A stretch of DNA of 64,000 nt, from contig CAYOWP010000003.1 of assembly GCA_964407715.1 (NCBI GenBank), positions 1 to 64,000 of the forward strand. Direction: 5' to 3'. The DNA comes from an uncultured archaeon. GTDB taxonomy: Archaea > EX4484-52 > JAADEF01. Each line of letters opens with the position of its first letter. Position 1 is the stretch's first letter. Under the pieces are notes generated by a model, which saw only the letters and a list, made by a program, of their open reading frames with translations, had not been told where the DNA came from and did not search any database. Shown in pieces: positions 19,640-63,227 of the stretch. Made by a program: the position numbers and the translations under genes.

Positions 19640-19807
19640 TGGAGAAGAAAATCGCTGTTACCAAATACCTTTAGCATGCTATCTTTTTCAATGATTAGCC
19701 GCTGCAATGCTCTCTAATAAGAGTTATGGTTCCCATTAACCATTTATCCTTTTTAAGGTTAGCTGCTGTAATGTAGCGCATTGATAAGGTATGCTTTCCC
19801 TTAACCA
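19640..19807. repeat. Palindromic module array (degenerate, about 1.5 units)
   Basis: AATCGCT...AGCATGCTA...GTTATGGTTCCCATTAACCA; AGGTTAGCTGCT...TTCCCTTAACCA. Confidence 0.75.
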
Positions 19808-19885
19808 TTTTATAAGAAATAATCAACGGAAAGATTAGGAGGCTAATTGCTTCAAAATGTCTTTGTAACAGATGTATCTCTCATT

Positions 19886-20018
19886 AAATCCTCATCAAAA
19901 AATTATTGGACAATTTGTTCACGGGAAATATAGCCATATTCAAAGGGTTAACCGCTCTAATGCGCTTCTTTAAAGGGTTATGTTTCCGCTTAACAATAAA
20001 GAATTATTGGACAATGCC
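19886..20018. mobile_element. MITE, truncated copy (one terminal TIR plus the internal TIR)
   Basis: Colinear with about 8635-8765; ends GAATTATTGGACAATGCC. Confidence 0.8.
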
Positions 20019-20075
20019 ATGATTTTTCAAAATCCAAAAAATTTTAAATTTTTCTAAATAAGATAATATATACTT

Positions 20076-21290
20076 ATGAAAGAGATTTTTCAAAAGCTCT
20101 ATAAAAACATAAAAAATGTTACATATAAATTTGCACTTCCTGTTGCGCTTTCTTGGTATTGCTTAGTTGGAAATCCACAAGGATTGCCATTCTATAATAT
20201 AAAAAATGCCTATGCAGAGATTAAACATATCAAAATTAAAGATGAGATCAGATTATCAGAAAAAGAATATATATGTTCAAGTGATAAGGTTTATGATCAT
20301 AATAATGGCACAATACTATATACTAGATTTGAATGTTTAAATTCAGAAGATAATGACGACGCAAGAACAATTTTGATGTTTATCATTAATAAAGATAAAG
20401 TAAAAAAGGAAATAGATGAATATCTTGAACATGTGGGTGACAAAACATATAATTCTACTGCTGATGAAATAATGTTACCATCGAAATGGACATATTTTCC
20501 ATCTACTCCAGGATATGCCTTTGATTTACTACAAGGAGAAGAGTATCCAGACATAATAAGACAGGGTGAAAGAGATAGAGTATTTGCACGTCAACTTGCT
20601 GAAAATACTATATTTACGTTTGAAGTAGTTTATTATCCATATAGCAATAAACTTGATTTTATATTGGGTTTTTTATCATCTGAAATGTGGAAATTAATTC
20701 CAAAAAGCAATCCTCGGATTGATTATATCAAAAGAAGAGAGAAAATACCTGTATCCTTATGTGTATCTTCTCCTTGCTTAGAAGATGAAAATTCTGTTAT
20801 TGAAGGTCGAATATTAGTGGATCCTTTCGTAAATAACATGGAATTTATTGAAGAAATAAAAAAGCATGTTCCTTATTTTATGTGCATAGATATTGGATAT
20901 CTTTCCCCATATCTTGAGGATCAGCCAAAAGAAATCATAGAAAAAGCAAGAGACATAGTGGAGAAGAGTCTAGTGGTAGTTATTCCTCAGTATTATTATA
21001 GATTTGTGTGTTCTGATACAGATAAAAAAGATAATTTTTATTTTGATGTTGAAATAAGCAGAGATTATTATACCTACACCGATACTTCCAAGTTTTATGT
21101 AGTAGTAAAATTGGAAGAAGGAAGCACAATAAAGGAAATTGTTAAAAAGGCAAGAAGAACTTTCACATATGAAAATGTAAAAACGGGAGCTGAGATAACA
21201 AAATACTTCTTTAAAATCCTATGGGATACTATAAAAGAAAGCGTCACAACCAAATCTAATGAAAATAAGGATGAAAACTCTTCTCAATGA
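20076..21290 (+). CDS. Hypothetical protein, probably secreted
   Basis: 404-aa ORF with signal-like N-terminus (KNAYAE); no motif recognised; bracketed by repeat arrays. Confidence 0.65.
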   Translation: MKEIFQKLYKNIKNVTYKFALPVALSWYCLVGNPQGLPFYNIKNAYAEIKHIKIKDEIRLSEKEYICSSDKVYDHNNGTILYTRFECLNSEDNDDARTILMFIINKDKVKKEIDEYLEHVGDKTYNSTADEIMLPSKWTYFPSTPGYAFDLLQGEEYPDIIRQGERDRVFARQLAENTIFTFEVVYYPYSNKLDFILGFLSSEMWKLIPKSNPRIDYIKRREKIPVSLCVSSPCLEDENSVIEGRILVDPFVNNMEFIEEIKKHVPYFMCIDIGYLSPYLEDQPKEIIEKARDIVEKSLVVVIPQYYYRFVCSDTDKKDNFYFDVEISRDYYTYTDTSKFYVVVKLEEGSTIKEIVKKARRTFTYENVKTGAEITKYFFKILWDTIKESVTTKSNENKDENSSQ

Positions 21291-21316
21291 TATTTACCCT
21301 TCAAAAATAAGTATAA

Positions 21317-21765
21317 TGGTTAAGGGAAATCATATCCTCTAAAAAAATCGCATAACAGGATAGTAACCTTCAAGAGAAGGATAGCCGCTTCAAACTGCTT
21401 TGAGAGACCACATCTTCCACTCAACCATTTTAAATAAAATTTTGTTAACGTGAAAAATTGCTCCCTAAACCACATTATTGCATTGTAACCTCTATGAAAA
21501 GTTACCTGCTTTAATGTGCTTTTTTAGAGGGTTATGCTTCCCCTTAACCATTCTCTCATTTTGAAATATGGTTACCGGGAAGATATCGCTCTTTTAAGGT
21601 ACATTGCAGCATGCTAACCTTTTTTTGAGGTTAGCTGCTTCGGAACCTCATCAAAAGGTTAGCTGCTTTGACATGCTGAACAAAAAGGTTATACTGCCTG
21701 TTAACCATTCTTTATTTTTTAGAAATAATTGGTTAACGCGAGGAATAGCCATCACAAAAGATACC
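21317..21765. repeat. Palindromic module array (3 units plus a partial)
   Basis: Units include 21442-21550 (109 bp) and 21569-21707 (139 bp). Confidence 0.9.
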
Positions 21766-21852
21766 GCTCCTAAAGTTTTATAGCATAACTATTTTCTATA
21801 CCTAATCTTTTTATGCAAACTTAATAAAATTTTTTGTATCAAATATATTGTT

Positions 21853-22542
21853 ATGAAAATAAATCGTACATTATCACAAATCGAAATTGATAAAGGCGTG
21901 GGAAAGGAGATAGAAAAGAAATTACTCAATGCAAAGGATAGAATCATAGTTATCTCTCCATGGATATCAAAAAGATATATAAGCATATTACACAAAAAAA
22001 CTCATGAAATCAAAGATCTTAGAATTTTTACATATGAAAATGAGGAAAATTATTACTCCATAAATCCATTTGTTGAAAAGAAACTGCATTTAAAAGAATT
22101 TGTATTAAATGGCATTCTTACTCTTGTCTCCTTTTCTCTTTTCATTTACTTGCTATTATACTTCCTTGAATCATATAAATTTATCTTCCTTATCCTAAGC
22201 ATTTTGGTATTTATATCTTTTTTATTATTCTTCATAAATCTAAAGGAAAGCTATACTATCCAGTGTAACATGAACATCATAATTCAATCAGAGAATGATG
22301 AAAACTTTTTGCATTTAAAGGCATATTTGATAGACAAGGAGCTATACATCTCATCAGCAAATTTAACAGAAAATGGGATGAGTAAAAATATTGAAAGTAT
22401 GGTGAGATTCGATGATAATATAGTCATAGAGGAGTTCCTAAGATATGCTGATCATCTAACCAAAAAAGTAAACATGATTCCTTTAGAAAATTTCATAAAG
22501 AAATACTCTATAAAGACAAAGTTTTTTGGATTTATAAGATAA
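21853..22542 (+). CDS. Phospholipase D-like domain protein with an internal TM hairpin
   Basis: VISPWI, HLKAYLID (HxKxxxxD), SSANLT, NIES. Confidence 0.8.
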   Translation: MKINRTLSQIEIDKGVGKEIEKKLLNAKDRIIVISPWISKRYISILHKKTHEIKDLRIFTYENEENYYSINPFVEKKLHLKEFVLNGILTLVSFSLFIYLLLYFLESYKFIFLILSILVFISFLLFFINLKESYTIQCNMNIIIQSENDENFLHLKAYLIDKELYISSANLTENGMSKNIESMVRFDDNIVIEEFLRYADHLTKKVNMIPLENFIKKYSIKTKFFGFIR

Positions 22543-22554
22543 AGAGGAGATAAA

Positions 22555-23331
22555 ATGGAAATGTTAGAAAAAATACTTTATCTATATTCCTCGGAGAAAT
22601 ATACCATAACAACAACTCTTATAAATGTAATTATCGGAATAGCGCTTTTTTATATTGCTCTATTTGTACAAAAACAAAAAAAGATACCTCTAAAGGAATT
22701 GTATTATGCTACATTATCATGGGGGATATTGGGGATAACAATAAGATTCTCAGCTGATATCTTTAATATACAAATGCCTCTCAGATTGTTCTTTATTACT
22801 CCTTTTATATACATAGAAATATTCCTTCTTGCTTTGTGTTTTCTTTATATCAATAGGAAGATATGGACTCATGTTCCTATCTTTATAAGCATCCCTTGTC
22901 TCTTATTCCTAATTATAAATGCAAACCACTTTAGGTTCATGCATGGATTAATAATTATGATATTTACATACGTGGTATATTTATTTGCCAAAAGAAGATA
23001 TTCACAAAAAGAATTCTCCTTACCAATAACTTTTCAAAGTTTTGATGGTTTCACAACCTTTATAGCCACAACATATCTTGCTTTTTATGAGGAGCATTTG
23101 CTTGCAAATAAAATAACAAAATTAGCAAGTAATTATCTATTCACAATAAACAACTCAGGAGCATGGTTATTTCTTCTTATAAAGATTTTGATTCCTGTAC
23201 TATTAATAGAAATAATAAGGAAAAGCGATTATTTAAGAGAAAACAACAACATAAAATTTGTGTTATGGTTCATTGCCTTTCTTGGCTTCTTAACCGGAAC
23301 AAGAAATTTACTTAACATCCTCTTCATATGA
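22555..23331 (+). CDS. DUF63-like archaeal membrane protein
   Basis: FITPFIY, DGFTTF, YEEHLL, LGFLTGTRN; multiple TM helices. Confidence 0.7.
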   Translation: MEMLEKILYLYSSEKYTITTTLINVIIGIALFYIALFVQKQKKIPLKELYYATLSWGILGITIRFSADIFNIQMPLRLFFITPFIYIEIFLLALCFLYINRKIWTHVPIFISIPCLLFLIINANHFRFMHGLIIMIFTYVVYLFAKRRYSQKEFSLPITFQSFDGFTTFIATTYLAFYEEHLLANKITKLASNYLFTINNSGAWLFLLIKILIPVLLIEIIRKSDYLRENNNIKFVLWFIAFLGFLTGTRNLLNILFI

Positions 23332-23335
23332 GCTT

Positions 23336-24140
23336 TGGTTAACGCAACAAAAATCATCCCAGGAGTATTGGAGAAGCTAACCTCTTTTTAAGGTTAGCTT
23401 CTCTAATGTGTCTCATTTAGAATGTACGCTTCCGCTTAACAATTTTCTAATAAATGGTTAACGTGAAAAAATCACTTTCATCCAGGTATTACAGGATCCT
23501 AACCTGGTTAAAAGTAGGTGTCTCACAAACCGCTTAGAGAGGTTAGCTGTTTTGATATGTCTTGTTGATAAGGTATCCTTCCTCTTAACCATTCTTTCAT
23601 TTTGAAAAATGGTTAACGCGAGGAATAACCATTCTAAAAGGTTTGCGGCATGCTAACCCTTTAAAAAAGTCAGCTGCTCACAAACCCCTCTAAAAGGTTA
23701 CCTGCTCTAATGTGCTTTTTAAGAGGGTTATGTTCCCGTTAACCATTTTTTTTATTTTTGAAAAATGGTTAACGCGAAGAATAGCCCTCACGAAAAGGTT
23801 CATGGCATTGTAACCGCTTTAAAAAAGGTTAGCTGCTTCCAAAACGCTCATAAAGGTTAGCTGCTCTAATGTGGTTTTTTAGAGGTTACATCTCCCCTTA
23901 ACCATTTTTTATTTTAAAAAATTGTTAACGGGAAAAATAACCATTCTGAAGGGTTTTGCGGCATTGTAACCTCTATGAAAAGTTACCTGCTTTAATGTGG
24001 CTTTTTAGAGGGTTATGTTTCCCCTTAACCATCTCTTATTTTAAAATGATGGTTAACGGGAAAATATCGCTTTCAAAAACACATCGCAGCATTGTAATCA
24101 CACAACCGGTTAGCTGCTCCACAAACCACTTAAAAAGGTC
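23336..24140. repeat. Palindromic module array (5 units plus a partial)
   Basis: Units include 23610-23745, 23766-23904 and 23922-24031, separated by AT-rich linkers of about 12-20 bp. Confidence 0.92.
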
Positions 24141-24211
24141 ATCATATTGTGAGGTGGATTACTTATATAAAGTCTCCACTTCAATTAACTCTCTCTTATA
24201 CCAAGTCATTC

Positions 24212-26173
24212 TCATCTTAATCGAACGCTTTCAAGATTCTTTGGTAAGCTGACATTCATGTTAAAGAATTTTCTGGCTGCATCTGCGAGATCAGCGGATT
24301 TTTTGGGCTCACCATGATTGATAATCAAATGCTTAGGCTTGGATTTTAAATTGTTGAGATATGCCAATAATTGTCTTCTATCACTATGACCAGAAAAGCC
24401 TTCTACAGTAACCACTTCCATTTCCACTTTAACTCCATTTCCATCATATGGCAATGACACCTCAGCAATGCCCTTCTGAATCTTTGATCCTAAGGTTCCT
24501 TGAGCTTGATATCCTATAAATACCAAGGTATTCTTCTTATCTGATGCTAATTCCTTAAAGTATTCCAATACAGGACCTCCATTCATCATTCCTGATGTTG
24601 ATAATATAACACATGGCTCTGGATTATCTATAACATTTCTCCTATCACCTGAGCTCTTAATGGGTATAAAAATCTCTTCCCCAAATGGATTATATTCCTC
24701 GCGTAAAATCATTTTCTGCATATAAGGAGACATATATTCAGGGTATGTTGTATGTATTGCGGTTACCTCATATATCATACCATCCAAATATACTGGAATA
24801 TTGAAATCAGGATTTCTCCTTTTGTACTCTGCAATGGTCATCATTACCTCCTGACTTCTACCAACAGCAAATACAGGTATCAAAACTTTACCTTTTCTCT
24901 CAGCTGTCTTTAATATGATATCCATCAATTTCTCATCAGCCTCTTTTCGTGAAGGAAGAACATCCTCTTTACCACCATAAGTTGACTCTATAAGCATGGA
25001 CTCTACCCTTGAATAATTTACAAACGCAGGCTCCAATAACTTACTTGGCCCAAATTTTATGTCTCCAGTATATACAAAATTGTGAAATCCTTGGCCTATA
25101 TGTATATGAACAGAAGCACTTCCAAGTATATGTCCAGCATTGAAGAAAGTTAATCTCATATCTGGTGTTATATCAAAAACTTCACCATAGTTAAGCGTGA
25201 CCGTATGTCTCAAAGCCTCTTTTATGCCTTTAGATGTATATGGAGCTACTTCACCAATATTTTTGGACACGTCAATATAATCAAGTTGTAAAAGAGTTGA
25301 TAAATCCCTTGTGGGCTCTGTCATATACACTGGCCCGCGATAACCTAATTCATAGAGCATGGGTATCATGCCACAATGATCAGTATGAGCATGAGACAAT
25401 ATAACAGCATCCAAATCATCTAAGGAGAACTCAGGCGCATCTATATAAGGAAATCTCGCAGAGTGATTCATTCCAGCACCGAAATCCAACAAAACTCTTG
25501 ATGTTTTTGTTTGTAAAAGAATAGCTGACCTACCAATCTCCTCAAAACTTCCTAAGGCAGTAATTCTTACCCATCCTATAGATTTTCCTCCTTTCTTAAG
25601 TTGAATCCTCTCTCCTATCTTTTCAAGAAACTTCTTTCTATATGTTCTCTCCTCATGTATTATTTCTCTTGCCTTATTTACAATTGGCGATGGTATCAAT
25701 GGCACCCTTTGAAATTCAACATCCCACAATGTCTCTCTTTTTATTTTTTTTATTATCTCTCCTTCCTTCCCAATCACCATCCCTGGTCTCTTTGCAAAGA
25801 TAATCATCTTAGAGAATTCAGGCTCAAAAAGAATCTCTTTTATCTCTGCCTCTTCTGGAGCTAACTTCATAACCAATTCCTTAGCTTTTTCAGGTGGCAT
25901 AGAAATTGAAGGATCAGGTCTTACATGTATTCTCTTTTTTATTGCCTTTGCTAAAGGTCTTAATTTATTTAATCCCTCAATAAAGAAATCCTTATTCTTT
26001 GTATATACCACAATATCCGGCCCTTCAAAACTCAATTTAAATGGTTTTGCTTCCTCAGGAATATATTTTTTTATACTATCCAAATCCATAACTTCTTCAT
26101 CCAATTTGATATCCAACATCTCATTATTAGAATCCTCTTTCTTGTTTACATTATCTCCTTTTTCTTTTTTCAT
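24212..26173 (-). CDS. fttA: Beta-CASP ribonuclease aCPSF1 / transcription termination factor FttA
   Basis: N-terminal KH domains, SHAHTDH, AGHILGS, FSGHSDRRQL; adjacent to psmB as is typical. Confidence 0.95.
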   Translation of the reverse strand: MKKEKGDNVNKKEDSNNEMLDIKLDEEVMDLDSIKKYIPEEAKPFKLSFEGPDIVVYTKNKDFFIEGLNKLRPLAKAIKKRIHVRPDPSISMPPEKAKELVMKLAPEEAEIKEILFEPEFSKMIIFAKRPGMVIGKEGEIIKKIKRETLWDVEFQRVPLIPSPIVNKAREIIHEERTYRKKFLEKIGERIQLKKGGKSIGWVRITALGSFEEIGRSAILLQTKTSRVLLDFGAGMNHSARFPYIDAPEFSLDDLDAVILSHAHTDHCGMIPMLYELGYRGPVYMTEPTRDLSTLLQLDYIDVSKNIGEVAPYTSKGIKEALRHTVTLNYGEVFDITPDMRLTFFNAGHILGSASVHIHIGQGFHNFVYTGDIKFGPSKLLEPAFVNYSRVESMLIESTYGGKEDVLPSRKEADEKLMDIILKTAERKGKVLIPVFAVGRSQEVMMTIAEYKRRNPDFNIPVYLDGMIYEVTAIHTTYPEYMSPYMQKMILREEYNPFGEEIFIPIKSSGDRRNVIDNPEPCVILSTSGMMNGGPVLEYFKELASDKKNTLVFIGYQAQGTLGSKIQKGIAEVSLPYDGNGVKVEMEVVTVEGFSGHSDRRQLLAYLNNLKSKPKHLIINHGEPKKSADLADAARKFFNMNVSLPKNLESVRLR

Positions 26174-26262
26174 ATATCTCTACCTTCAGTGTTATCAATG
26201 AGATAAGCAAAATTATATGAAACATCAACAAAAAGAAGATTCATAAGAGCAAAATCATGAAT

Positions 26263-26937
26263 TTACATAAGAATATTCCTTAAAATTTCATCAACCTCCT
26301 TATCTGTTAATCTTCTATATCCATCTTTATTCATAACAACCACATCAATGCCTTTTCCTCCACTAGCAGTATCACGTTCTGCTGCTGCTTTTATGCTTCT
26401 TATCGCAAGCTCTATTGCCTCACTCTCTTTGAGATCTTTTCTATAGCCATTCTCCAATACTCCTACAGCTATAACGCTCCCTGATCCAGAAAATGTATAT
26501 TCAGATGCCTCATCAATCCCACCAGCAGCATCTATGCTATATAGATGAGGTTTTGAATCATACCCTCCAACAATAAGCTGCACTAATTCAGGATGAAAGC
26601 TCTTATAAGAGGCTCTCAAGATATTAGCAAGCAAAACAACAGCTGCTTTAACAGGTACATATCCATGCTCATATTTGTACAACTCCAACTCAGCCCTTAA
26701 TAATCTAATCATTGCCTGAGCATCACCCACACTACCTGCAATTGTCATACAAATAGAATCAATGATATGATGTATCTTATTTGCTTCCTTTGATGCCACT
26801 AAATGTCCCATTGTAGCCTTTTTATCTGCTGCCAAAACAACACCATCCTTATACAATATCCCAACTGTGGTTGTACCTGTCTTTAAGATGTTCATATCTT
26901 TATTCTCTGAAATAATGATCACCTTATCATCCAACAA
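26263..26937 (-). CDS. psmB: Proteasome beta subunit
   Basis: KTG|TTTVG, AADKKAT, AGSVGDAQ, SGSGS, ERDTASG. Confidence 0.96.
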   Translation of the reverse strand: MLDDKVIIISENKDMNILKTGTTTVGILYKDGVVLAADKKATMGHLVASKEANKIHHIIDSICMTIAGSVGDAQAMIRLLRAELELYKYEHGYVPVKAAVVLLANILRASYKSFHPELVQLIVGGYDSKPHLYSIDAAGGIDEASEYTFSGSGSVIAVGVLENGYRKDLKESEAIELAIRSIKAAAERDTASGGKGIDVVVMNKDGYRRLTDKEVDEILRNILM

Positions 26938-27238
26938 GTTTTATCTCAACATTAACATTATGAGGTATATCTATTCTCATTATATGTTTTAGAGTCCTCT
27001 CATCCACCGCGATATCCAACACTCTTTTATGTATCCTCATCTCCCATCTATCCCATGTCTCAGTTCCATCTCCTGAAACAGCCTTTCTAACAACCACTCT
27101 CAAACGTTTTGTAGGTAGTGGAATGGGTCCCGAAACCTTAGTACCATGTGACAAAGCAATCTCTTTTATCTCCATAGCAATCTTATCCAAAAGTTTATGA
27201 TCAGTAGAAGTTAATTTAATCCTTGCAACTTGCATCAA
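26927..27238 (-). CDS. rpsJ: 30S ribosomal protein S10 (uS10)
   Basis: ARIKLTS, GPIPLPTK, WEMRIHKR. Confidence 0.97.
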   Translation of the reverse strand: MMQVARIKLTSTDHKLLDKIAMEIKEIALSHGTKVSGPIPLPTKRLRVVVRKAVSGDGTETWDRWEMRIHKRVLDIAVDERTLKHIMRIDIPHNVNVEIKLVG

Positions 27239-27285
27239 ATATCACCATAAATATAAAATAATAAAGGAAATAAAAATTCAAAATC

Positions 27286-28914: not shown

Positions 28915-28928
28915 AAATCTCACCTTTT

Positions 28929-29686: not shown

Positions 29687-29687
29687 C

Positions 29688-33307: not shown

Positions 33308-33416
33308 ACCAATCACCCCTCATGTTATGATATCTTTTAGATGCTTCTTAACAATACACAACATACATATAAAAAGTAGAAAATTTTTTAAATTTAACGG
33401 TCATTTTTCCTTTAAA

Positions 33417-33675
33417 GGCATTGTCCAATAATTCTTTATTGTTAAGCGGAAACATAACCTCTCAAAGAAGCGTATGAGAGCAGTTAACCCTTTGAATAGG
33501 GCTATGCTTCCCGTTAACAAATTGTCCAACAATTTTTTAATGAGGATTTGTTAACGAAAAAATTCGTTCTTATCATTGCATTAGCTCTCTAAGGTTTGCT
33601 GCTCTGATGCGCTTCTTTAAAAGGCTATTTTTCCGCTTAACAAATTTTGTTAATAGGGAATTATTGGACAATGCC
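33417..33675. mobile_element. MITE, long form (259 bp)
   Basis: 18-bp perfect TIR GGCATTGTCCAATAATTC/GAATTATTGGACAATGCC; flanks TCCTTTAAA/GACTTTAAA (7/9 match); internal TIR at about 33521. Confidence 0.88.
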
Positions 33676-33870: not shown

Positions 33871-33936
33871 TGGTTAACGAAAAAGATCACTATTATCAAA
33901 GATTTTGCAGCATGCTAACCCCTCTTAAAGGTTATT
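33871..33936. repeat. Solo half-module
   Basis: TGGTTAACG...TTTTGCAGCATGCTAACC...AGGTTA. Confidence 0.75.
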
Positions 33937-37083: not shown

Positions 37084-37231
37084 GGAATTGTCCAATAATT
37101 TTTTAATGAGAATTTATTAACGAAAAAATTCGTTCTTACAATCGCATCAGCTCTACAAGGTTCGCTACTCTAAGCGCTTCTTTAAGAGGCTACCTTTCCG
37201 CTTAACAAATAGAGAATTATTGGACAATGCC
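37084..37231. mobile_element. MITE, short form (148 bp)
   Basis: GGAATTGTCCAATAATT...AATTATTGGACAATGCC; flanks TCTAACATT/TCTAACATC (8/9 match). Confidence 0.88.
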
Positions 37232-51567: not shown

Positions 51568-51630
51568 ATCATTTAAATTTATTTTTAAACATTTTAAATA
51601 TTTTTATGTTTAGAAGTTTAGAATCAAATC

Positions 51631-52298
51631 ACCTTTAAAAAAAGGTTAGTTGCTTCAATGCGGTTTTGATAGCAATATTTCCCGTTAACCATGTTCTTAT
51701 TTTGGAAAATATGGTTAAAGGGAAGCATACCATCTCAATAGCGCGTTAGAGCAGCTAACCTTTCTAATGGATTAGTGAGCAGCTAACCTTTAATTAGGTT
51801 AGTATGCTGCAATGTGGTTGTGAAAGCGATATCTTCCCGTTAACCATATCATTTATTTTAAAAAATGGTTAAAGGGAAACATACCTCTCTCATTCAGCAC
51901 ATTAGAGCAGCTAACCTTTTTATGCGGTTACCATGCTTCAAGACCTTAGTGATAGACGATTTCTTCCCGTTAACCATGTTCTTATTTTGGAAAATATGGT
52001 TAAAGGGAAGCTTACCCCATCAACAGCACATTAGAGCATCTAACCTATTGCAAAGGGTTACCATGCTACAAAACCTTTGTGAAAGAGATTTCCTCCCGTT
52101 AACCATATTTCAAAATAAAAATTTGGTTAACGAAACACCTACCCATATACCCAAAGCGCATTACAGCATCTAACCTGTTTAAGCGGTTAGCATGCTCTAA
52201 GAGCTGTGGTAATAAGGGAATTCTTCCTGTTAACCATTTTAAAAATGGTTAGCGAGATATATACTAATTCATTTTGCGTATCAAATCATCTAACCTTT
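51631..52298. repeat. Palindromic module array (4 units plus 2 partials, mostly reverse orientation)
   Basis: TGGTTAAAGGGAA...AGAGCAGCTAACC...GGTTA(G/C)(C/T)ATGCT...TTCCCGTTAACCA. Confidence 0.92.
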
Positions 52299-55607: not shown

Positions 55608-55710
55608 ATAATTATAGATATATCCTTGGGATAAATATATTTTTGGTTAACTGAGAGAGTAGTCTCTTATATTAGCAGATATCTTCTCAAAATAAGCAAC
55701 ATTTGATCTT

Positions 55711-56268
55711 CTAAACAGGTATCTTTACACATCCCTGTTCTTGACAAAGAGTAAGTAAATAATTAACAGCATATTTATTTCCTAATATCACCCCATTAGG
55801 TAGTTTACAAAATGAATATTCGTTATTAAGGTATATTTTCTCACCTTTCATATTGTCACACATCTTTTTTTCATATTCCTTTCCCATGAAATATCCATTT
55901 TTCTCTTGTGAGTCTGTAGGATATCCCTTTATTAAAATTAAAGTCCCATTTCTTAATATGCCAAATAATAATGGTACTCCTCCATCCCATTTGTAACCAT
56001 AATGATCCTCTAAATACTTAGCATATTCACTTCCATCTTCTATTTTTACAACAGAAATACTTGGATATTTATCATGCATATCTTCCAGATAAGACATCAT
56101 ATAATGACAGTGAGGACAAAAAGAAGAATAAATGAGATAGATGACACTACCATTGACATTTTCTTCATTTTCTTTTGGTAAGTTTTCCTCATTAACACAA
56201 CCAGATAGAAATATAAAATTAACCAATAAAAACACAATGGATAAGTTAAGAATATCTCTTTTCTTCAT
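55711..56268 (-). CDS. Thioredoxin-fold lipoprotein
   Basis: Lipobox LSGC, CPHC, GVP. Confidence 0.8.
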   Translation of the reverse strand: MKKRDILNLSIVFLLVNFIFLSGCVNEENLPKENEENVNGSVIYLIYSSFCPHCHYMMSYLEDMHDKYPSISVVKIEDGSEYAKYLEDHYGYKWDGGVPLLFGILRNGTLILIKGYPTDSQEKNGYFMGKEYEKKMCDNMKGEKIYLNNEYSFCKLPNGVILGNKYAVNYLLTLCQEQGCVKIPV

Positions 56269-56280
56269 ACTTCTCTCACC

Positions 56281-56934
56281 TTATATCATGAAAAATACAG
56301 CAATCAATAGCAGACCAGCTATTAAATGCAAATATCTTATATTTTTTTCTCTCCACATAAGAATCTTTCGTGGCATTGTACCAAATCCTATAATCAAAGT
56401 AATAAGTATCATAGGTAATACAAAAATCAAGTTATAATATGCTAAATATATAAATTTGGACAATGAGAATCTCATCAATATCAATGCACTAAGATAAGGT
56501 CCTGAAGAACAAGGCAACAATAGAAGAGAGCACAACATAGCTACAGGAATAGCCATAAAAGGACTTGTAGTAGCTTTTATAACTTTCTGCGCTATTGGTC
56601 GAAAACGCATAGGCATCTCCATAGCTATAAAGCCAGGTTTATATCTGAAGTATGCCTGTATTTCCATAAAAATCATTACAAGCAATAGAATTCTCAATAT
56701 CCACTTAAGTATGCTTTCCATTCCTATCACATATATTATGCTTAAAATCCCAAGACCATAAAGAAAGTACATAACATATATTGTCAATGTGAAAAATATA
56801 CCTCCTATTATTGCACTTCTCCTTCCTTTAGTTATTAAAAGAGCTGATAGTAAGAGAGCTTGCACTGCTATCGTACAAGGATTAACTGCATCAACCAACG
56901 CAAGAAGAGTAATATTCAAAAATTCATCAAACAT
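56281..56934 (-). CDS. CcdA/DsbD-like membrane electron transporter
   Basis: DAVNPC and LPCSSGPY, YNLIFVLP; six TM helices. Confidence 0.85.
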   Translation of the reverse strand: MFDEFLNITLLALVDAVNPCTIAVQALLLSALLITKGRRSAIIGGIFFTLTIYVMYFLYGLGILSIIYVIGMESILKWILRILLLVMIFMEIQAYFRYKPGFIAMEMPMRFRPIAQKVIKATTSPFMAIPVAMLCSLLLLPCSSGPYLSALILMRFSLSKFIYLAYYNLIFVLPMILITLIIGFGTMPRKILMWREKNIRYLHLIAGLLLIAVFFMI

Positions 56935-57068
56935 ATATAAAATTCCCTCTTATGCTATTTTAAAAAATTTTTTAATAACCTCATCTAAAAACTCTCTTTT
57001 TCTCTAAAAAATAAAGTAGCAATATATTCGTAGAAGCAACATCATCTTAACTAAAATTTTTATTAAAA

Positions 57069-57915
57069 TGGTTAACGAAAAGCAAATCTTGTCAATAGCA
57101 CATTACACCAGCTAACCTCAAAAAAGGTACCATGCTACAAAGCCTTCGTTGGAGGAATTCTTCCTGTTAACCATATCTCTTAATCTCTTAAAAAATAAAA
57201 AATTGGTTAACGGGAAACATAATCTCTTCATTCAGCATATTGAAGCAGCTATCCTTTTTAGAAAAGGTTAGCATGCTACGAAGCATTTGTGAGAGCGATA
57301 TCTTCCCGTTAACCATTATTTTAAAATAATTGGTTAACGGGAAACATACATTATCATAAAGCCATATCAGAGCAGCTAACCTTCAAAAGATGGTATCATG
57401 CTCCAAACCCTTTGGTAAGGCGATATCTTCCCGTTAACCAATTATTATTTTAAAAATTTGGTTAAGGGAAAAATAGCCAATTCATTTAGCATATCAGAGC
57501 ATCTAACCTTCTTAACCGGTTAGAAAGCAGCTAACCTTTAAAAGAGGTTAGCATGCTGCAAAACCTTTCGGAGAGATATTTTCTCCCCTTAACCATATCA
57601 TTTATTTTAAAAATGGTTAAGGGGAACCATACCTTTCTCCTTCAGCATATTGAAGCAGCTAACCTCATGAAGGCGTTTTGAAAGCAGCTATCCTTTTTAG
57701 AAAAGGTACCATGCTGCAAAGCCTTTCTGAGAGCGATATTCTCCCATTAACCAATTTTTATTTTTTTTTTAAAATTAGTTAACGGGAAAACATACCTCAT
57801 CGAGAACCACATTCCAGCAGCTATCCCTTTTTAAGAGGTTAGTGAGCCTCTAACCTTTCTAAGCAGTTATCATGCTACAAAGCCTTTGGTAATAGCGATT
57901 TTCTTGCGTTAACCA
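57069..57915. repeat. Palindromic module array (6 units, reverse orientation)
   Basis: Six successive T(G/A)GTTAA...TTAACCA units: three short, then three long. Confidence 0.93.
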
Positions 57916-57986
57916 GTTTTCATTTATTTATTGGAGATAATTGAAAGAGAAACTTTTTTAAATCCAAAAAATATATGGAAATATTA

Positions 57987-58045
57987 GCGATGATTAAGCC
58001 GTCCCAGGATGATAAAAAGATGATTATTTAGGGTAGCTCATGAGC
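57987..58045 (+). ncRNA. Box C/D-like sRNA 1
   Basis: GCGATGA-15nt-ATGA-5nt-AGATGA-16nt-ATGA-GC. Confidence 0.65.
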
Positions 58046-58079
58046 AGTACAATATCTTTTTCAAGAAATCTCATTAAAA

Positions 58080-58139
58080 AGGGCGATGATTAAAAGACCG
58101 TAAGATGATGTGTGATTATGTGAACACCCAATGAGCCCT
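58080..58139 (+). ncRNA. Box C/D-like sRNA 2
   Basis: Terminal stem AGGGC/GCCCT; GCGATGA-15nt-ATGA-TGTGTGA-15nt-ATGA. Confidence 0.7.
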
Positions 58140-58182
58140 CTTAACAATATTTTTAAACACAAATTAAGGATAAATATATTAT

Positions 58183-58917
58183 ATGGCATTGCCTAAAAGA
58201 CAAATAAAAGATGAAGAGCAAAGAAAAATTTTTGGAAAGATTTTTGATAATTTGGTAATCCAGGATCTCTTTAAATTAAAAGCAAAGGGCATATATGATA
58301 CCTATGGAGGACTCTTAGAAGAGGGAAAAGAAAGCAGAATACTCTTGGTTTATAAAGATGAAGAGCCAAGAATTATAAAGATATACAAAATAGAAGCCGG
58401 GAACTTTAAAAATATGCTTCGATATCTTGAAGGAGATGAAAGATTTAAAAAGATTAGAGAGAGAAGGAGAGATATAATATATGCATGGTGTAAAAAGGAA
58501 TATCATAATCTACTTATAGCAAAAAAAGTTGGTATATCTTCACCAGAACCTTATGATTATATTCATAATATAATTGCTATGGAGATGCTCGGAGAAAATG
58601 CTCCATATCCGCAGCTTAAGGATATCGTATTATCAAAACCTGAAAAAGTTCTTAAAAATATATTATCTCAAATTGAAATCTTACTAAAAAAAGGAAAACT
58701 TGTACATGGAGATATAAGCGAGTTTAATATTCTTATAGATTCAAAAGAAAGACCCTATTTTATAGATTTTGGTCAAGCAGTATTAACATCACATCCATTT
58801 GCCAAAGAATTCCTTAAAAGAGACATAAAAAATTTAATAAATTATTTTTATAAAGAATATAATATTGAAAATGATGCTGATGAAATATATGCAAGGATGT
58901 GTAACGGTGTATTTTAA
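58183..58917 (+). CDS. rio1: RIO1 family protein kinase
   Basis: GKES, KIYK, WCKKEYHNL, LVHGDISEFNIL, IDFGQAV. Confidence 0.93.
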   Translation: MALPKRQIKDEEQRKIFGKIFDNLVIQDLFKLKAKGIYDTYGGLLEEGKESRILLVYKDEEPRIIKIYKIEAGNFKNMLRYLEGDERFKKIRERRRDIIYAWCKKEYHNLLIAKKVGISSPEPYDYIHNIIAMEMLGENAPYPQLKDIVLSKPEKVLKNILSQIEILLKKGKLVHGDISEFNILIDSKERPYFIDFGQAVLTSHPFAKEFLKRDIKNLINYFYKEYNIENDADEIYARMCNGVF

Positions 58918-59462
58918 TGAGTTCTTATGAGATTGTATTCTCGGTACCCGAGGATAGAATAGGTGTATTTATAGGTAAAAAAGGAGAGACAAAGAGAATG
59001 TTAGAGAATTCTCTTGGTGTAAAGATAAAAATTGATACGCAAGATAGCAAAGTCATATTCATATTGGATCACGAAGATCCTTTAAAAGAGGTTAAAATAC
59101 AAGATATCATGGATGCCATATCTCATGGCTTTTCTCCAGAGGTTTCATTGAATCTATTAGATGATAGATATGTACTCTATAAAATAAATTTAAGGGAAAT
59201 ATATGGAAAAAACAATAAAAAGACCATTACAAGATATAAAGGCAGAGTAATAGGTGAAAAAGGATCATTTAAAAGGAAGATAGAAGAATATACCGATACT
59301 AATATATCTATCTATGATGACTATATTTATATTATAGGTAAATTAGAAGATGTATTAACTGCAAAAGAGGGAATTGAAATGATTTTACAAGGTGCAAAGC
59401 ATTCATCAGTGATTTCCTTTTTTGAGAAAAAAGCTTTTGAAAAAAATCTCATGTTAAGATGA
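58917..59462 (+). CDS. KH-domain RNA-processing protein (Dim2/Pno1-like)
   Basis: RIGVFIGKKG, GFSPE, KGRVIGEKG, GAKH; conserved linkage to rio1. Confidence 0.92.
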   Translation: MSSYEIVFSVPEDRIGVFIGKKGETKRMLENSLGVKIKIDTQDSKVIFILDHEDPLKEVKIQDIMDAISHGFSPEVSLNLLDDRYVLYKINLREIYGKNNKKTITRYKGRVIGEKGSFKRKIEEYTDTNISIYDDYIYIIGKLEDVLTAKEGIEMILQGAKHSSVISFFEKKAFEKNLMLR

Positions 59463-59472
59463 GGCGAATTAT

Positions 59473-60303
59473 ATGGCTAAAAAAGAAATATTTTCATTTT
59501 GGGGTCCTGTGATTGGAGCATTAAAAAATAAAAAAACAGCATTATATTTTGGATTGGCATTTGGAATTATTCAAATTCTTATCTCTCTAATCCTCTCTAC
59601 GCATTATAGCTCTATAGCTATGCTTGCTATAATAATTCTCTTTATTCTCTATATTTTATTGGATATAATGTTTTTAGGTGTCTTGGTCTCGTACATTCAT
59701 CTACTAATGAAGAAAAAATCATATGTATCTTTGGACGATGAAACTCTAAATCTTAGAGATGTTTTATCAAAAGGTTTTGGTGCTTTTATTGTTAGTCTTA
59801 TATGGGGAATATTAATAGTAGCAATTGGTGGAATCGTTATAGTGGCACTTTTTAGCTTACTCTTTTTTATTTTGCAATTATTAATCTCAACTCCCTCATT
59901 ACTAATGCTCAGCGGTTTATCTGCTCTATTATTAATTATCCTCATTTTAATGGGTATAGGAGGATATTATCTTCACTTCCTTATTAACGCATATTATTCC
60001 CTAAACTTCCGCGTTTCTGATGCTCTTAAATTCAAAGAGATAATACGTAAAGCATTTAGCGAAAAATATCTTGTTGTGGTATTAAAGTCTATTTTAATGG
60101 GCATCTGCATTATGATTGTATTATCTCCTTTTATGATGGGATATTCAACATTTGAAAGCACACCTTATAAAGAGAATTTTTTAAATAACATTTTAAATAT
60201 ATTTCTTTTATTAATATCTTCAATTATAGGTGTATTTTCATCCTTTATTTTTTCCTATTATTCATTTGAAGGATATGAAAGGACAAAAAGTAGCATGTCA
60301 TAA
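59473..60303 (+). CDS. Membrane protein (DUF4013-like)
   Basis: Multiple TM helices, ALKFKEI. Confidence 0.6.
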   Translation: MAKKEIFSFWGPVIGALKNKKTALYFGLAFGIIQILISLILSTHYSSIAMLAIIILFILYILLDIMFLGVLVSYIHLLMKKKSYVSLDDETLNLRDVLSKGFGAFIVSLIWGILIVAIGGIVIVALFSLLFFILQLLISTPSLLMLSGLSALLLIILILMGIGGYYLHFLINAYYSLNFRVSDALKFKEIIRKAFSEKYLVVVLKSILMGICIMIVLSPFMMGYSTFESTPYKENFLNNILNIFLLLISSIIGVFSSFIFSYYSFEGYERTKSSMS

Positions 60304-60317
60304 GAAGGTGAGTTTTA

Positions 60318-60626
60318 ATGGCTGAACACGCATTACAGATAAAACCACCTGAAGATGTCGTATTGGTTGTGATGGGCAAAAGCGGCCAACAATTTGAGTT
60401 GCCTGCTGGCAAATTCACATTAATAACATTTGATTATGAAGGAGATACATTGATATTTGAAGGCAAAACTATAAAACAAATAGCAACGCTAAAAACGATT
60501 TCAGATATGTTCTGGATGATATTGTCACTAACAGCAAAAGGTTTTGAGGTCAAACCTAATGAGCCTCTCGAAATCTTAAAAAAAGTTTTAAATGAAAATA
60601 CCTCTCAAAAGAAGAAGGAGCAGTGA
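60318..60626 (+). CDS. Hypothetical protein
   Basis: 102 aa with AGGTGA RBS. Confidence 0.7.
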   Translation: MAEHALQIKPPEDVVLVVMGKSGQQFELPAGKFTLITFDYEGDTLIFEGKTIKQIATLKTISDMFWMILSLTAKGFEVKPNEPLEILKKVLNENTSQKKKEQ

Positions 60627-61210
60627 AAGAAATGGTAGAGAAATGTAAGAATTGCGGTTATAAAATTAGTAAAGATTGGCATTATTGTCCACGATGTGGT
60701 TTTTGTATTGATAGATGGTATGATAAGATCAATTTTGGACTTGATGAAATAATAAATCATATTATCAGAGATATTCAGAATGTTCTATTCAAGAATGTGC
60801 TCAAAATAGATATAAAACCTCTCAACATAGAGGTTTCTTCTCAATCCCCTTCTACTCCACTTCACAAAGGCGCATATACGAGCAAGATGAAAAAAGAAAA
60901 TAAAGAGCCTTCCAAATTCATAAGAAATGTAAAGGAAATCGTAGAGCCAGAAGCAAATATAATAAAAGGAGAAGATTTCACAGAGGTTGAGATGGATGTT
61001 AAAGGCGTAAAAAGCATAGATGATGTGTTTATTGTGCTATATGACAACTCCGCTGAGATCAGAGCATATACAGAAAACAATGAAAAAATGTATTTTAAGA
61101 TTGTTGAGATTCCTCCATATGCAGATGTTGCAGACAAAGTTCTAAAGAAAGATGGTAAACTAATCTTAAGATTTGAAATAATGGATTATTATGATGAAGA
61201 TAGCCATTAA
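60623..61210 (+). CDS. Zinc-ribbon plus Hsp20-like domain protein
   Basis: CKNCG..W.YCPRCG; EPEA..., VKGVKSIDDV, EIRA, YFKIV, DGKLIL. Confidence 0.7.
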   Translation: MKEMVEKCKNCGYKISKDWHYCPRCGFCIDRWYDKINFGLDEIINHIIRDIQNVLFKNVLKIDIKPLNIEVSSQSPSTPLHKGAYTSKMKKENKEPSKFIRNVKEIVEPEANIIKGEDFTEVEMDVKGVKSIDDVFIVLYDNSAEIRAYTENNEKMYFKIVEIPPYADVADKVLKKDGKLILRFEIMDYYDEDSH

Positions 61211-61217
61211 AAATAGG

Positions 61218-62357
61218 TTAGCTATTTATTATGCTAATTATCGCATTCATATAATTCTCTACTGCTCTCTGAGTAGTCATCTCATGGAGCTTATGTTGAT
61301 AAATAGTAGGTATTTGTAATGTAATTCCTCTCACGTTAACTCCATTCTGAAGTAATCTTCCCAATTCTGTTTTCCCTTCTTTTTTATCATAAATCTCATA
61401 TGGAATGTTGTTATTCCTTAAGATTCTTACAATGTCTGAAACAAAATTCTGATCATACTCGCTAAGTGCATCTCTACTTCTGATTATCACCTCTCCTTCC
61501 TCAATCTTATCTTTCTCTTCTTTTCTATACGGACGTGTATCCAACACGATTAAAGGAACATCCTGAGTTTTGAGAATTTCCTCATAGAAATGCTTAAGGC
61601 ACTTCCAACTTTCACCTATCTCTTCACGAGTTGTGAATATCAAGGAAATCTTTTCTCTAAATAAAGAAGCATATTTTTTATCTTTAAGTAGAGCAAGAAT
61701 AACTGAGATCGATATAGCATTATCAATTTGTCCATATATGTATCCTGTTGGTGAAATAATAAGAAATGGTTCAAAGGCAACTGGAGTATCTTCTCTCAGT
61801 TTATCCTTTTTTTCAAACCATTGAACATAATAAGCGAGAGTTAACTTTATCCTATTATCATCTATATATGTTATATACTTTGGCGAACATGTACCTAGCA
61901 GTTTTCCTCTTGCTAAGATCTCTCCAGTTAATGGATTATAAGCATACACTTTCTCATTAGTATATCTATTACAAATCTCCCTAATGGAATAAGGAGAAAT
62001 TGTGTGAGATCTTGAAAACTCATCTTTATCAAATACAACAGCATCTTCATCAACAACATAAAATCCATGTCTATCTGTATGAATAGAGAATACTATCTCT
62101 GGTCGGGATGTGAGAATTGGGATTTTAGCAGGAATGTTATCAACTTCTGGAATTCTTAGAATGCCGTATACTGTCTCCGGTCGGGAAGGTAAAGCATAGA
62201 GATATTTTATTTCTTCTTTTTCAGTTATCCTACATTCCTGGTAGTTTCGTTTTATATCCTTATAGATGGATCTCAATAATACATCTTCATATTTCACAAC
62301 ACATGGAGTATTAATTATTTCTTTAAGGATTTTCTCAAATTGTCTCTCCTTTTTCAT
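61218..62357 (-). CDS. M42/M28-family metallopeptidase
   Basis: SIHTDRH, QIDN, TTREEIG, LDT, H..HE. Confidence 0.8.
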   Translation of the reverse strand: MKKERQFEKILKEIINTPCVVKYEDVLLRSIYKDIKRNYQECRITEKEEIKYLYALPSRPETVYGILRIPEVDNIPAKIPILTSRPEIVFSIHTDRHGFYVVDEDAVVFDKDEFSRSHTISPYSIREICNRYTNEKVYAYNPLTGEILARGKLLGTCSPKYITYIDDNRIKLTLAYYVQWFEKKDKLREDTPVAFEPFLIISPTGYIYGQIDNAISISVILALLKDKKYASLFREKISLIFTTREEIGESWKCLKHFYEEILKTQDVPLIVLDTRPYRKEEKDKIEEGEVIIRSRDALSEYDQNFVSDIVRILRNNNIPYEIYDKKEGKTELGRLLQNGVNVRGITLQIPTIYQHKLHEMTTQRAVENYMNAIISIINS

Positions 62358-62416
62358 ATTCCTTTATTATAAAATTCAGTAAATTTTAAAAAATTAACGC
62401 ATATAAACACATTCAA

Positions 62417-62679
62417 GACATTGTCCAATAATTCTTTATTGTTAAGTGAAAACATAACCTCTCACAGAAGCGCATGAGAGCAGTTAACCCTTTGAGTAAG
62501 GCTACGCTTCCCGTTAACAAATTATTTTGAATAGATAAAAATTGTTAACGGGAAGAAATCGCTATTACTACAGGTTTTGTAGCATGTCATCTTTAAGGTT
62601 CGCTACTTTAATGCGCTTCTTTAAAAGGTTACTTTTCCGCTTAACAAAATTTGTTGATATGGAATTATTGGACAATGTC
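62417..62679. mobile_element. MITE, long chimeric form (263 bp)
   Basis: TIR GACATTGTCCAATAATTC/GAATTATTGGACAATGTC; perfect 9-bp TSD CACATTCAA (62408-62416 and 62680-62688). Confidence 0.92.
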
Positions 62680-62699
62680 CACATTCAAGAGTCATATTA

Positions 62700-63227
62700 C
62701 AGCAGATAACCTTTTTTTGGCATATTACTTGCATTAACTAAACTCTTTATTTGGAAAATGGTTAAGGTAAAATATTCTCTCAATCAAGCACATTAGAGGG
62801 CAGATGATCTCTCTCTGAAAAATGATAGTGCGAGAAAAAACCTTCATAATGAGATCCTTAATAATTTTAGAATTTATTTTATAAAATCTGGTTAACAGGA
62901 AAATATCGCTAACATAAAGATTTTGCAGCATGGCATCTTTTTAGGTGGTTAGCCGCTCCAATGTAATTGCTTTAGTGGTATGTTTCTCGTTAACCAAATT
63001 TTTATTTTGAAAGATGGTTAACGCGAGGAAATCGTTTTCACAAAGGCTTTGCAGCATGCTAACTTTTTTTGGTTATCTGCTTTTGATATGGATCATCTCC
63101 TGTTTAATAAAATTGGTTAAGAAAAATTTAATCTCCTTCTTAGGAGTATTACAGCAGCTAACCTTTTTTTAGCAGGTTATCATGCTGCAAAAACTTTCGT
63201 AATAATGTTTTTTTCTTCTGTTAACCA
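62700..63227. repeat. Palindromic module array (mixed orientation, degenerate)
   Basis: Units at about 62889-62996 (forward) and 63113-63227 (reverse), plus partials. Confidence 0.85.

Follow-up and report, generated by a model that had tools for sequence, protein, structure and literature searches.

Mosaic arrays of a species-restricted palindromic DNA module in a tiny vent archaeon

BOX elements of Streptococcus pneumoniae are modular repeats with a stable fold and no known transposase, in which the middle module varies in copy number. The palindromic repetitive elements of Methanocaldococcus jannaschii (MJRE; Suyama, Lathe and Bork, FEBS Lett 2005) are reportedly archaeal and mostly extragenic, with more than 100 diverged copies and no known enzyme; they are not known to have ordered tandem arrays, two size classes or a MITE carrier. 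BIMEs are built from REP sequences, and REPINs are paired with RAYT transposases (PMC3333891, PMC2817692, PMC3116915). REP sequences are GC-rich palindromes of 20-40 bp that carry a GTAG or CGTC tag (PMC3733652), and REPINs commonly show compensatory changes (PMC3116915). DPANN genomes are listed among the MITE-densest archaea, and the highest cMITE share given there is 1.23%, in endosymbiont genomes (PMC11602168).

The arrays analyzed here, in a stretch of 64,000 nucleotides from an uncultured archaeon (the window), form a genuine family of palindromic, non-coding DNA modules that is restricted to one species, a tiny vent archaeon. Overall, we read them as MITE/BIME-like selfish repeats. The MJRE probably belong to a different sequence family. 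The variable middle module of BOX resembles the apical hairpin copies of the present units, whereas BOX elements are bacterial, unrelated in sequence and not known to form long head-to-tail arrays. Similar to attC sites, the units are imperfect palindromes in arrays of one orientation, and their conserved extrahelical base may be a further likeness, but there is no integron integrase, no cassette and no single platform, the loci being dispersed and more than 60 in number. Compared to BIMEs and REPINs, the modules are likewise intergenic, high-copy, mosaic and clustered in tandem; as in BIMEs, palindromic arms of two types follow one another in alternating orientation, joined by short linkers of two kinds, and a REPIN is likewise an inverted doublet with a hairpin of ~100 nt. 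However, the host is archaeal, the family lacks a RAYT/Y1 gene and the GTAG/CGTC tag, the arms are ~50 bp instead of the 20-40 bp of REP, compensatory changes are absent, and the units are ~67-72% alike whereas REPIN tandem clusters hold near-identical copies. Like MITEs in the cited survey, the module is short, non-coding, intergenic and species-specific, with 13-14-bp terminal inverted repeats (TIRs) and without its own transposase. It differs in its bare modules and arrays without target duplications, its long head-to-tail arrays, its re-assorting arms and its share of 4.4% of the genome against the top cMITE share of 1.23% given there (PMC11602168).

In each unit, two distinct arm types of ~50 bp are joined as an inverted pair. 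They are built on GGTTA(A/G)C boxes, of which the 110-bp form has four and the 138-bp form six. The consensus unit starts with TGGTTAAC, and the TIRs are TGGTTAACGGGAAG ... CTTCCCGTTAACCA; the consensus arms agree with those read earlier from the window. Arms of the left and right types alternate; the apical loop is ~9 nt long and the AT-rich junction linker 8-30 nt, and the inverted box pairs are 9-14 nt apart at the apex and ~20 nt apart at the junctions. The long form gains its extra 28 nt from a tandem duplicate of the apical hairpin CTAACC-loop-GGTTAGCTGCT, of which a unit holds one or two copies (possibly three), in line with the optional ~28-bp box duplication first suggested. Genome-wide, 159 non-redundant complete units were counted in 69 arrays once a duplicated contig was removed, comprising 89 units of 105-113 bp, 66 of 134-141 bp and four of other sizes (174 units with the duplicated contig, namely 100, 69 and five), and the two size classes noticed in the window are thus tight across the genome. 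Family DNA totals 37.5 kb, corresponding to 4.4% of the genome and, by crude ORF calls, 29.5% of the intergenic bases. About half of it lies outside complete units, many copies being decayed, and the ORFs inside arrays are spurious ones only.

In the window, the end motif TGGTTAACGGGAA occurs 46 times with at most two mismatches, against 0.79 expected, a count reached in none of 100 shuffles. Sequence reading combined with an nhmmer map essentially reproduced the array positions of the earlier note (Table 1), with the second array mapped to 21317-21707 (or to 21765) and the last to 62889-63227. Under strict ends 15 units are complete, and the degenerate ones bring the number to ~20, so that the earlier count was fair. 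The array at 23336-24165 begins 5 bases past the last base of the ORF at 22555-23331. In addition, nhmmer recovered six loci of MITE-enclosed module DNA absent from the first reading (8544-8636, 19933-19995, 33439-33643, 37117-37208, 62439-62646 and 63444-63536).

Table 1. Module arrays and MITE composites mapped in the window
Coordinates	Strand	Feature	Composition and surroundings	Basis
8518-8800	.	Composite	MITE ends and modules	
19645-19807	+	Two degenerate module units	Adjoining a MITE end at ~19890-19920	nhmmer locus, sequence reading
21317-21765	+	Array	One degenerate unit; short 21442-21550; long 21569-21707; partial left arm from 21730	
23336-24165	+	Array	Degenerate 23336-23446; long 23455-23591, 23610-23745, 23766-23904; short 23922-24031; truncated final unit from 24050	
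33400-33673	.	Composite	MITE ends and two modules, beside tRNA-Cys	
33871-33935	+	Solo half unit	Left arm only	End-motif count, nhmmer map
37086-37229	.	144-bp MITE	One module; 10-nt target duplication (CCTCTAACAT)	
51613-52298	-	Array, divergent gap	Long 51712-51846; short 51866-51976, 51997-52105; partial or degenerate at both edges	
57069-57915	-	Array, divergent gap	Short 57069-57173, 57204-57315, 57331-57440; long 57459-57595, 57614-57753; degenerate long 57776-57915	
62419-62677	.	MITE with GGCATTGTCCAATAAT-type TIRs	Two modules in opposite orientation; 11-nt flanking direct repeat (CACATTCAAGA); inserted into a decayed module arm	
62680-63227	.	Mixed-orientation cluster	Decayed arm pieces 62680-62830; complete short unit 62889-62996 (+); partial unit from 63015 (+); reversed degenerate unit ~63115-63227	
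63414-63567	.	MITE	One module; 9-nt target duplication (CGTTTTTTG); begins ~9 bases past the end of tRNA-Ser	

The units run head to tail, and a single orientation is kept in 43 of the 44 multi-unit arrays. Unit identity is 0.72 within the same array compared to 0.665 elsewhere, and one array contains three units with 100% identical left segments. The single orientation, the higher same-array identity and the 28-nt apical duplication point to local growth. Further analysis revealed that the two arms of a unit assort independently, with similarity correlations between left and right arms of 0.12 and 0.06, and of 0.06 between a right arm and the left arm of the next unit; only 9 of 77 units have their nearest neighbour within their own array. 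Independent assortment of this kind is a measurable sign that dispersed copies recombine over short patches.

The hairpin is a property of the family as a whole and not of the single copies. The consensus folds as a long hairpin of -46 kcal/mol (RNA parameters), in which the extra T reported earlier (T43 in AGCA-T-GCTAACC) forms a bulge and is at least 90% conserved across units; since left and right arms represent separate lineages, this T may simply be inherited. The alternative junction hairpins proposed from the window are real and represent the best-defined ssDNA folds (z -6.4 and -7.5). Covariation was not found: 79.3% of cells are paired against 79.8 ± 0.3% after shuffling, and 56 double changes are observed against 70.9 in shuffled data. 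Beyond the boxes, ungapped complementarity equals the shuffled value within units and across junctions alike, and the mean MFE is -36.6 for real units and -36.6 to -37.9 for left/right chimeras. Folding shows no strand preference (difference -1.1 ± 0.7), and the common variants in the two best stems are uncompensated (C.C 28/78, G.G 23/78). As there is no selection on pairing in each copy, we take the arrays to be neither structured RNA genes nor attC- or REP-type folded-strand sites.

The module is carried as cargo by a MITE with GGCATTGTCCAATAAT ends and target duplications of roughly 9 bp, the ends presumably resembling those of IS5/IS903. A total of 49 TIR pairs enclose one to three modules, 15 of them flanked by perfect direct repeats of 6-11 nt, and only at this carrier were target duplications found. 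At the 13 clean-edged arrays the best direct repeat is at most 4 nt (mean 1.54 vs 2.01 shuffled). Among 61 long loci, a total that takes in the duplicated contig, a MITE end abuts 14, and the other 47 have none within 80 bp. Because of these clean edges and of the 47 loci without a nearby MITE end, seeding of the arrays by the MITE is something that we infer. This genome (assembly 92% complete) yielded no transposase able to move either MITE or module, and searches of it for DDE_Tnp_1 and for reverse transcriptase found neither. DDE_Tnp_1 is common in the order, being above cut-off in 21 of 41 relatives, and none of the eight transposase loci inspected in relatives has the MITE ends; ends common to an autonomous insertion sequence were thus not found. 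With no matching enzyme encoded in the assembly, any movement must take place in trans. Accordingly, the earlier idea of an undescribed hairpin system acted on in trans holds in that respect if the module is mobile, but its analogy with enzymes that read the bulge is not supported.

The family is confined to this species among the genomes searched. BLAST gave no real match in 40 relatives, two of which returned weak 26-28-nt AT-rich matches, and the covariance model built on the unit matched none of 41, including a same-genus genome whose genes are 72-76% identical. Exact-pattern scans of species genomes (two) and of viral contigs (two) yielded no family match, and the only two matches from a metagenome scan of the same kind were chance ones in GC-rich coding DNA of no relation. 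In a second and a third vent metagenome, contigs match 23396-23814, 23491-23641 and 23634-23778 with 0-1 differences, the independent-run contig over 23396-23814 having one. In the likely source run, one contig of 2,379 nt extends over 21612-23990 with zero differences. The arrays are nearly identical and stable between independent vent samples.

Altogether, we lean towards lineage-specific selfish or near-neutral mosaic intergenic DNA, distinct from RNA genes and from attC/REP-type sites. We propose that the module reaches new sites as MITE cargo, moved in trans by a transposase that would lie outside this assembly, and that, once there, slippage or unequal exchange at the conserved boxes may multiply it into a head-to-tail array. 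The observed re-assortment of arms would then come from gene conversion or short-patch recombination among copies, and the hairpin potential would be a consequence of the inverted-arm design instead of being selected copy by copy. Against this reading, the boxes are at least 90% conserved and the intervening segments only ~50-60% alike, a contrast that neutral decay does not predict; the units are ~67% alike (67-72%), yet the same-genus genome has none; and the genome holds no mobilizing transposase, with clean-edged arrays free of target duplications.

The conservation of the boxes could also reflect host-maintained binding sites, in which GGTTA(A/G)C inverted pairs would recruit a putative dimeric chromatin, nucleoid or regulatory protein and selection would act on the boxes, not on pairing. 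TTAA is invariant in 77 of 77 units and the box positions are at least 90% conserved, a value partly inflated because units were selected on their ends; the intervening segments have an identity of 0.51-0.59. The lack of selection on pairing and the stability of the arrays across samples fit this reading as well, as does the excess in divergent, promoter-bearing gaps, of which 56 of 146 hold repeats, compared to 40 of 448 tandem and 17 of 148 convergent gaps. This distribution bears out the earlier observation that the arrays sit in all three kinds of gap and are not simply terminators. However, the placement follows available non-coding space, the orientation relative to genes is unbiased (11 co-directional and 7 opposed in tandem gaps), and the box words are ordinary elsewhere in the genome (observed/expected 0.72-1.19). 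Moreover, many copies are decayed, and a host binding function would have to be brand new because the family is absent from all 41 relatives. We therefore regard maintenance by the host as rather unlikely.

More doubtful still, the module might be neither junk nor the passenger of a classical transposon, but the substrate of an undescribed box-specific DNA-binding or -processing activity. By copying single arms from locus to locus, such an activity would account for their free re-assortment, and it would keep the GGTTA boxes intact while the intervening segments drift.

Less probable again is a REP/BIME/REPIN-like or IS200/IS605-derived (PATE-like) origin, in which the module folds as ssDNA for cleavage and joining by an HUH (Y1) enzyme, or by an integrase reading the bulged T, whose gene would lie on an extrachromosomal element or in genome sequence missing from the assembly. 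The alternating arm types and two linker kinds mirror BIME architecture, the bulged T is conserved, array edges without target duplications fit HUH-type insertion, and some sequence is missing from the assembly, since 9 of 30 contig ends stop in repeats and completeness is 92%. Nevertheless, Y1_Tnp (PF01797; RAYT/HUH) has no match in this genome, whereas six control genomes match, and TnpB is not found above cut-off, the two zinc-ribbon matches scoring 16-17 bits against 26.3. The sole tyrosine recombinase is the housekeeping archaeal XerA (XerA_Arch equivalog, 261 bits, cut-off 220), which scores 200 bits with the integron-integrase model, under the cut-off of 265, and no cassettes or ORFs lie between units because the linkers are only 8-30 nt. 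The parallel with HUH and IntI enzymes drawn in the earlier note is therefore not borne out. At its foot, the consensus hairpin lacks a GTAG or CGTC tag, and the compensatory changes described as common in REPINs are missing (PMC3116915). As a candidate class, PATEs were rejected on the lack of Y1 and of TnpB above cut-off, and the units do have terminal inverted repeats, whereas PATEs have subterminal hairpins and no such repeats.

That the arrays are transcribed and processed into structured RNAs of 110-140 nt, as also considered at the outset, is highly improbable. The consensus hairpin and the overall excess of G.T over A.C in stems (267 vs 192) are what it has in its favour. However, rare stem transitions comprise 29 wobble and 25 A.C changes and are thus without strand bias, both strands fold equally, chimeras equal real units, and covariation is absent, as is any bias of orientation to flanking genes or any trace of the family in relatives. 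Consistent with the earlier failure to recognize the family, no Rfam model reached its gathering score; Rfam 15 found three tRNAs only in the window, and permissive scans of two arrays gave generic hairpin noise (13-23 bits against cut-offs of 50-208). An assembly artefact is practically out of the question: contig C9 exactly duplicates part of C8 and nine contig ends stop in repeats, but contigs of other samples and studies reproduce the array sequence with 0-1 differences, that of the likely source run matches without difference, and collapse or expansion would not yield the mutual differences of 20-35% between units of one array.

Genomes of such size are thought to be under strong compaction pressure, and in the same-genus relative the gaps are only 3-9 bp at the one orthologous locus read. 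A single repeat family at 4.4% of the genome and ~30% of its intergenic DNA makes a clear case in which to ask how repeats, selfish or structural, persist in reduced archaeal genomes. The family also breaks assemblies, as seen from the 9 of 30 contig ends inside repeats, and its arrays yield long spurious ORFs, which annotation of such genomes should mask. A CRISPR array, with its direct repeats and unique spacers, was rejected as a candidate, in that the boxes stand in inverted rather than direct orientation and variable segments are shared among loci. A canonical CRISPR array is present elsewhere in the genome (C4:76561-77828).

The short form of the module, a bulged palindromic repeat of ~110 bp, is bounded by a 13-14-bp terminal inverted repeat (TGGTTAACGGGAAG / CTTCCCGTTAACCA), and each of its arms holds one variable segment. 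The apical stem of the short consensus, AGCA-T-GCTAACC / GGTTAGC-TGCT, is closed by a loop of ~9 nt, and its extra T, described as a conserved feature in an earlier note made from the sequence alone, is indeed conserved at 90% or more. The left and right arms represent two distinct arm types. GGTTA is present in every conserved element with alternating orientation, with four copies per short unit. In units of the long form (~138 bp) the apical hairpin (28 nt; CTAACC, loop, GGTTAGCTGCT) is present in two tandem copies, in agreement with the optional duplication reported earlier, and owing to this duplicated hairpin they have six boxes, as we term the GGTTA(A/G)C motifs. A third copy of the hairpin, in decayed form, may be present in one unit of 162 bp. 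The units are arranged head to tail, with a single orientation in 43 of the 44 arrays of at least two units, and are connected by linkers of 8-30 nt (n = 90, median 18, 93% A+T). Because the unit ends are inverted repeats, the junctions between adjacent units also form hairpins, as the earlier note had proposed. Two junctions tested gave the best-defined single-stranded DNA folds (z of -6.4 and -7.5); for six whole units z ranged from -1.9 to -4.4, and the ensembles were ill-defined.

The assembly comprises 16 contigs totalling 898,521 bp with 32% G+C, the window being the first 64 kb of contig C3. Since C9:262-43957 is a 100% identical reverse complement of C8:7161-50856 (43.7 kb), the assembly is redundant: ~855 kb of it is unique, and repeat counts made without correction come out too high. 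C9 was left out of later counts unless stated. Matching every forward end in the genome to the reverse end that follows it yielded 174 complete units with C9 and 159 without it. The latter fall into the two size classes recognized previously, 89 units of 105-113 bp and 66 of 134-141 bp, in addition to four of other sizes. Within the window, 46 occurrences of the 13-nt end motif were counted where chance predicts 0.79, and the array positions first read from the sequence agree with both our sequence reading and a profile search. The profile search assigned 37.5 kb in 133 loci to the family, equal to 4.4% of the genome and, by crude ORF calls of at least 70 aa, to 29.5% of intergenic bases; about half of this DNA consists of decayed or partial units or modules within miniature elements (MITEs, see below). 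Nine of the 30 contig ends (on C1, C3, C5, C7, C8, C10, C11, C12 and C14) lie inside the family, indicating that arrays break the assembly and that the true copy number is higher than counted. Two further hydrothermal-vent metagenomes contain contigs that match the array sequence with 0-1 differences; as these independent contigs reproduce the arrays, the latter are real DNA, stable at that timescale, rather than the assembly artefacts once considered. Arrays of this family can yield false gene calls; a 102-aa ORF at 51865-52173 (+) of the window, lying wholly within the 51613-52298 array, is almost certainly spurious.

Comparison of the copies revealed that the arm variants are recurring types, each scattered across many arrays. 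Left and right types combine freely, with a segment-similarity correlation of 0.12 over 77 units and 0.06 over 143 units, and where the left segments of two units agree at 85% or more, the similarity of their right segments is 0.656 against a background of 0.636. Across 79 junctions, a right arm and the left arm of the following unit are correlated at 0.06; whether the replicating unit is taken to centre on the junction hairpin or on the unit hairpin, the arms show no linkage. Only nine of 77 units have their nearest relative in the same array, and same-array pairs are slightly more similar (0.72 vs 0.665). In one seven-unit array, three units share identical left segments and differ in their right arms. 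This mosaic pattern fits neither whole-unit transposition nor simple recent tandem duplication; it does fit local growth combined with short-patch exchange at the conserved boxes.

None of the tests run shows selection of the hairpin copy by copy. RNAalifold on MAFFT alignments returned almost no structure, so pairs were counted on a named structure in 77 distinct short units, long-form units being set aside. Standard pairs filled 79.3% of cells, compared to 79.8 ± 0.3 with partners shuffled, a level reached or exceeded in 458 of 500 shuffles, and double changes numbered 56 against 70.9 in the shuffles; the covariation to which the earlier note looked for support of a folded element did not appear. 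The commonest variants within the two best stems are uncompensated, namely C.C at terminal-stem position 8 (28 of 78 units) and G.G at one apical-stem position (23 of 78). Overall, G.T exceeds A.C (267 vs 192), and the split of 29 to 25 among rare, probably independent transitions indicates that this excess is inherited, not selected. Ungapped complementarity beyond the boxes was no different from the shuffled level, at 10.5 vs 10.8 shuffled within units and 11.1 vs 11.0 shuffled across junctions. The mean fold of real units (-36.6 kcal/mol) is no better than that of chimeras joining the left half of one unit to the right half of another (-36.6 to -37.9 kcal/mol), and both strands of units fold equally well. 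Rfam gave nothing at the gathering score, and permissive scans gave only generic hairpin noise.

A second element, a MITE bounded by GGCATTGTCCAATAAT-type ends, also carries the module as cargo. Its 49 end pairs fall into size clusters near 144, 154, 250 and 350 bp and enclose one to three modules, which may point either way. Of the 49, 15 are bordered by perfect direct repeats of 6-11 nt and several more by imperfect ones; the target duplications of this MITE family are roughly 9 bp. By contrast with the MITEs, the bare arrays lack the target duplication, none being found at 13 arrays with clean edges, and no MITE end lies within 80 bp of 47 of 61 long loci (C9 included). One of the copies listed below interrupts a module arm, so this insertion is younger than the array.

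Copies of the carrier MITE in the window
Element	Position in window	Feature
MITE	8518-8665	GGCATTGTCCAATAAT-type ends
MITE	33520-33673	GGCATTGTCCAATAAT-type ends
MITE	37086-37229	GGCATTGTCCAATAAT-type ends
MITE	62419-62677	inside older, decayed module arm
MITE	63414-63567	starts ~9 bases past tRNA-Ser end

Four enzyme models that might act on such a repeat were searched in the assembly, which is 92% complete. No Y1/HUH transposase (Y1_Tnp), a class suspected in the earlier note, was found, nor any match to DDE_Tnp_1 or reverse transcriptase (RVT_1), and nothing scored above the cut-off of the TnpB zinc-ribbon model. The tyrosine recombinase suggested as another candidate is represented solely by an archaeal XerA equivalog. 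ORFs enclosed by module or MITE end pairs were rejected as mobility genes, being ordinary host genes such as NIF3, seryl-tRNA synthetase and RIO kinase. DDE_Tnp_1 is above cut-off in 21 of 41 relatives from the same order, and neither MITE ends nor module ends occur at eight DDE transposase loci inspected there.

Repeats occupy 56 of 146 divergent, 40 of 448 tandem and 17 of 148 convergent gaps, which roughly follows the non-coding space available per class. In tandem gaps, 11 are co-directional and seven opposed, and the adjoining genes are ordinary. A search with a covariance model of the family (77 units) was negative in all 41 other genomes of the order, including the same-genus genome G001. 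A 422-bp array queried by BLAST against 40 relatives likewise had no real match, two of them giving weak AT-rich matches of 26-28 nt. G001 (genes 72-76% identical) is too diverged, and not syntenic at the gene adjoining the 23336 array, for an empty site to be defined. The large collections were scanned by exact pattern only, which misses diverged relatives: two patterns gave no match in species genomes or viral contigs, and the two metagenome matches are due to chance, within unrelated GC-rich coding DNA.

Altogether, the best-supported reading is that the arrays are a mosaic repeat, restricted to the species and either selfish or near-neutral. A transposase acting in trans would seed the module as MITE cargo, local growth would follow by slippage or unequal exchange, and recombination between copies would cause the observed re-assortment of arms. 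This reading does not account for three observations: the boxes are strongly conserved compared with the inter-box segments, no enzyme was found among the classes searched, and the family is absent from the sister genome although its copies are already ~33% diverged. These three points keep alive a host function or an unknown enzyme for the module, to which we assign a low probability. Among known systems, BIME/REPIN and MITEs are the closest to the module family in architecture. The tests that define REP-RAYT, attC and IS200/IS605 derivatives were negative for it, and its bare arrays also lack the target duplications that mark MITEs. The MJRE elements of M. jannaschii were also considered for comparison, and a literature search found no description of the module family. 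The literature consulted includes the REPIN (PMC3116915) and RepRanger (PMC12306157) papers, and a prokaryotic MITE census places DPANN genomes among the MITE-densest archaea (PMC11602168). A role as restriction sites was dismissed, with GTTAAC, GCATGC and box words neither avoided nor enriched outside the repeats, and a CRISPR-like reading of the arrays was likewise rejected.

Several neighbouring features were recorded. The gene at 21853-22542 (+) of the window lies between two arrays; its 229-aa product shows a PLD-like nuclease/phospholipase D motif (PLDc_2, E 2.9e-9) as well as apparent membrane segments, and in the four closest relatives no DNA-level homologue was seen. Two adjacent C/D-box small RNA candidates at 57990-58140, in the stretch separating the 57069 array from the RIO-kinase gene, have C boxes of the GATGATT type, ATGAG close to the 3' end and short terminal stems; their only Rfam match is a weak one to sR39 (58082-58136, 15.6 bits vs a cut-off of 50). 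On contig C4, positions 76561-77828 hold a canonical CRISPR array of ~20 repeats, the repeat containing GTCTTAATAAGATCATAGTGGGATTGAAAT.
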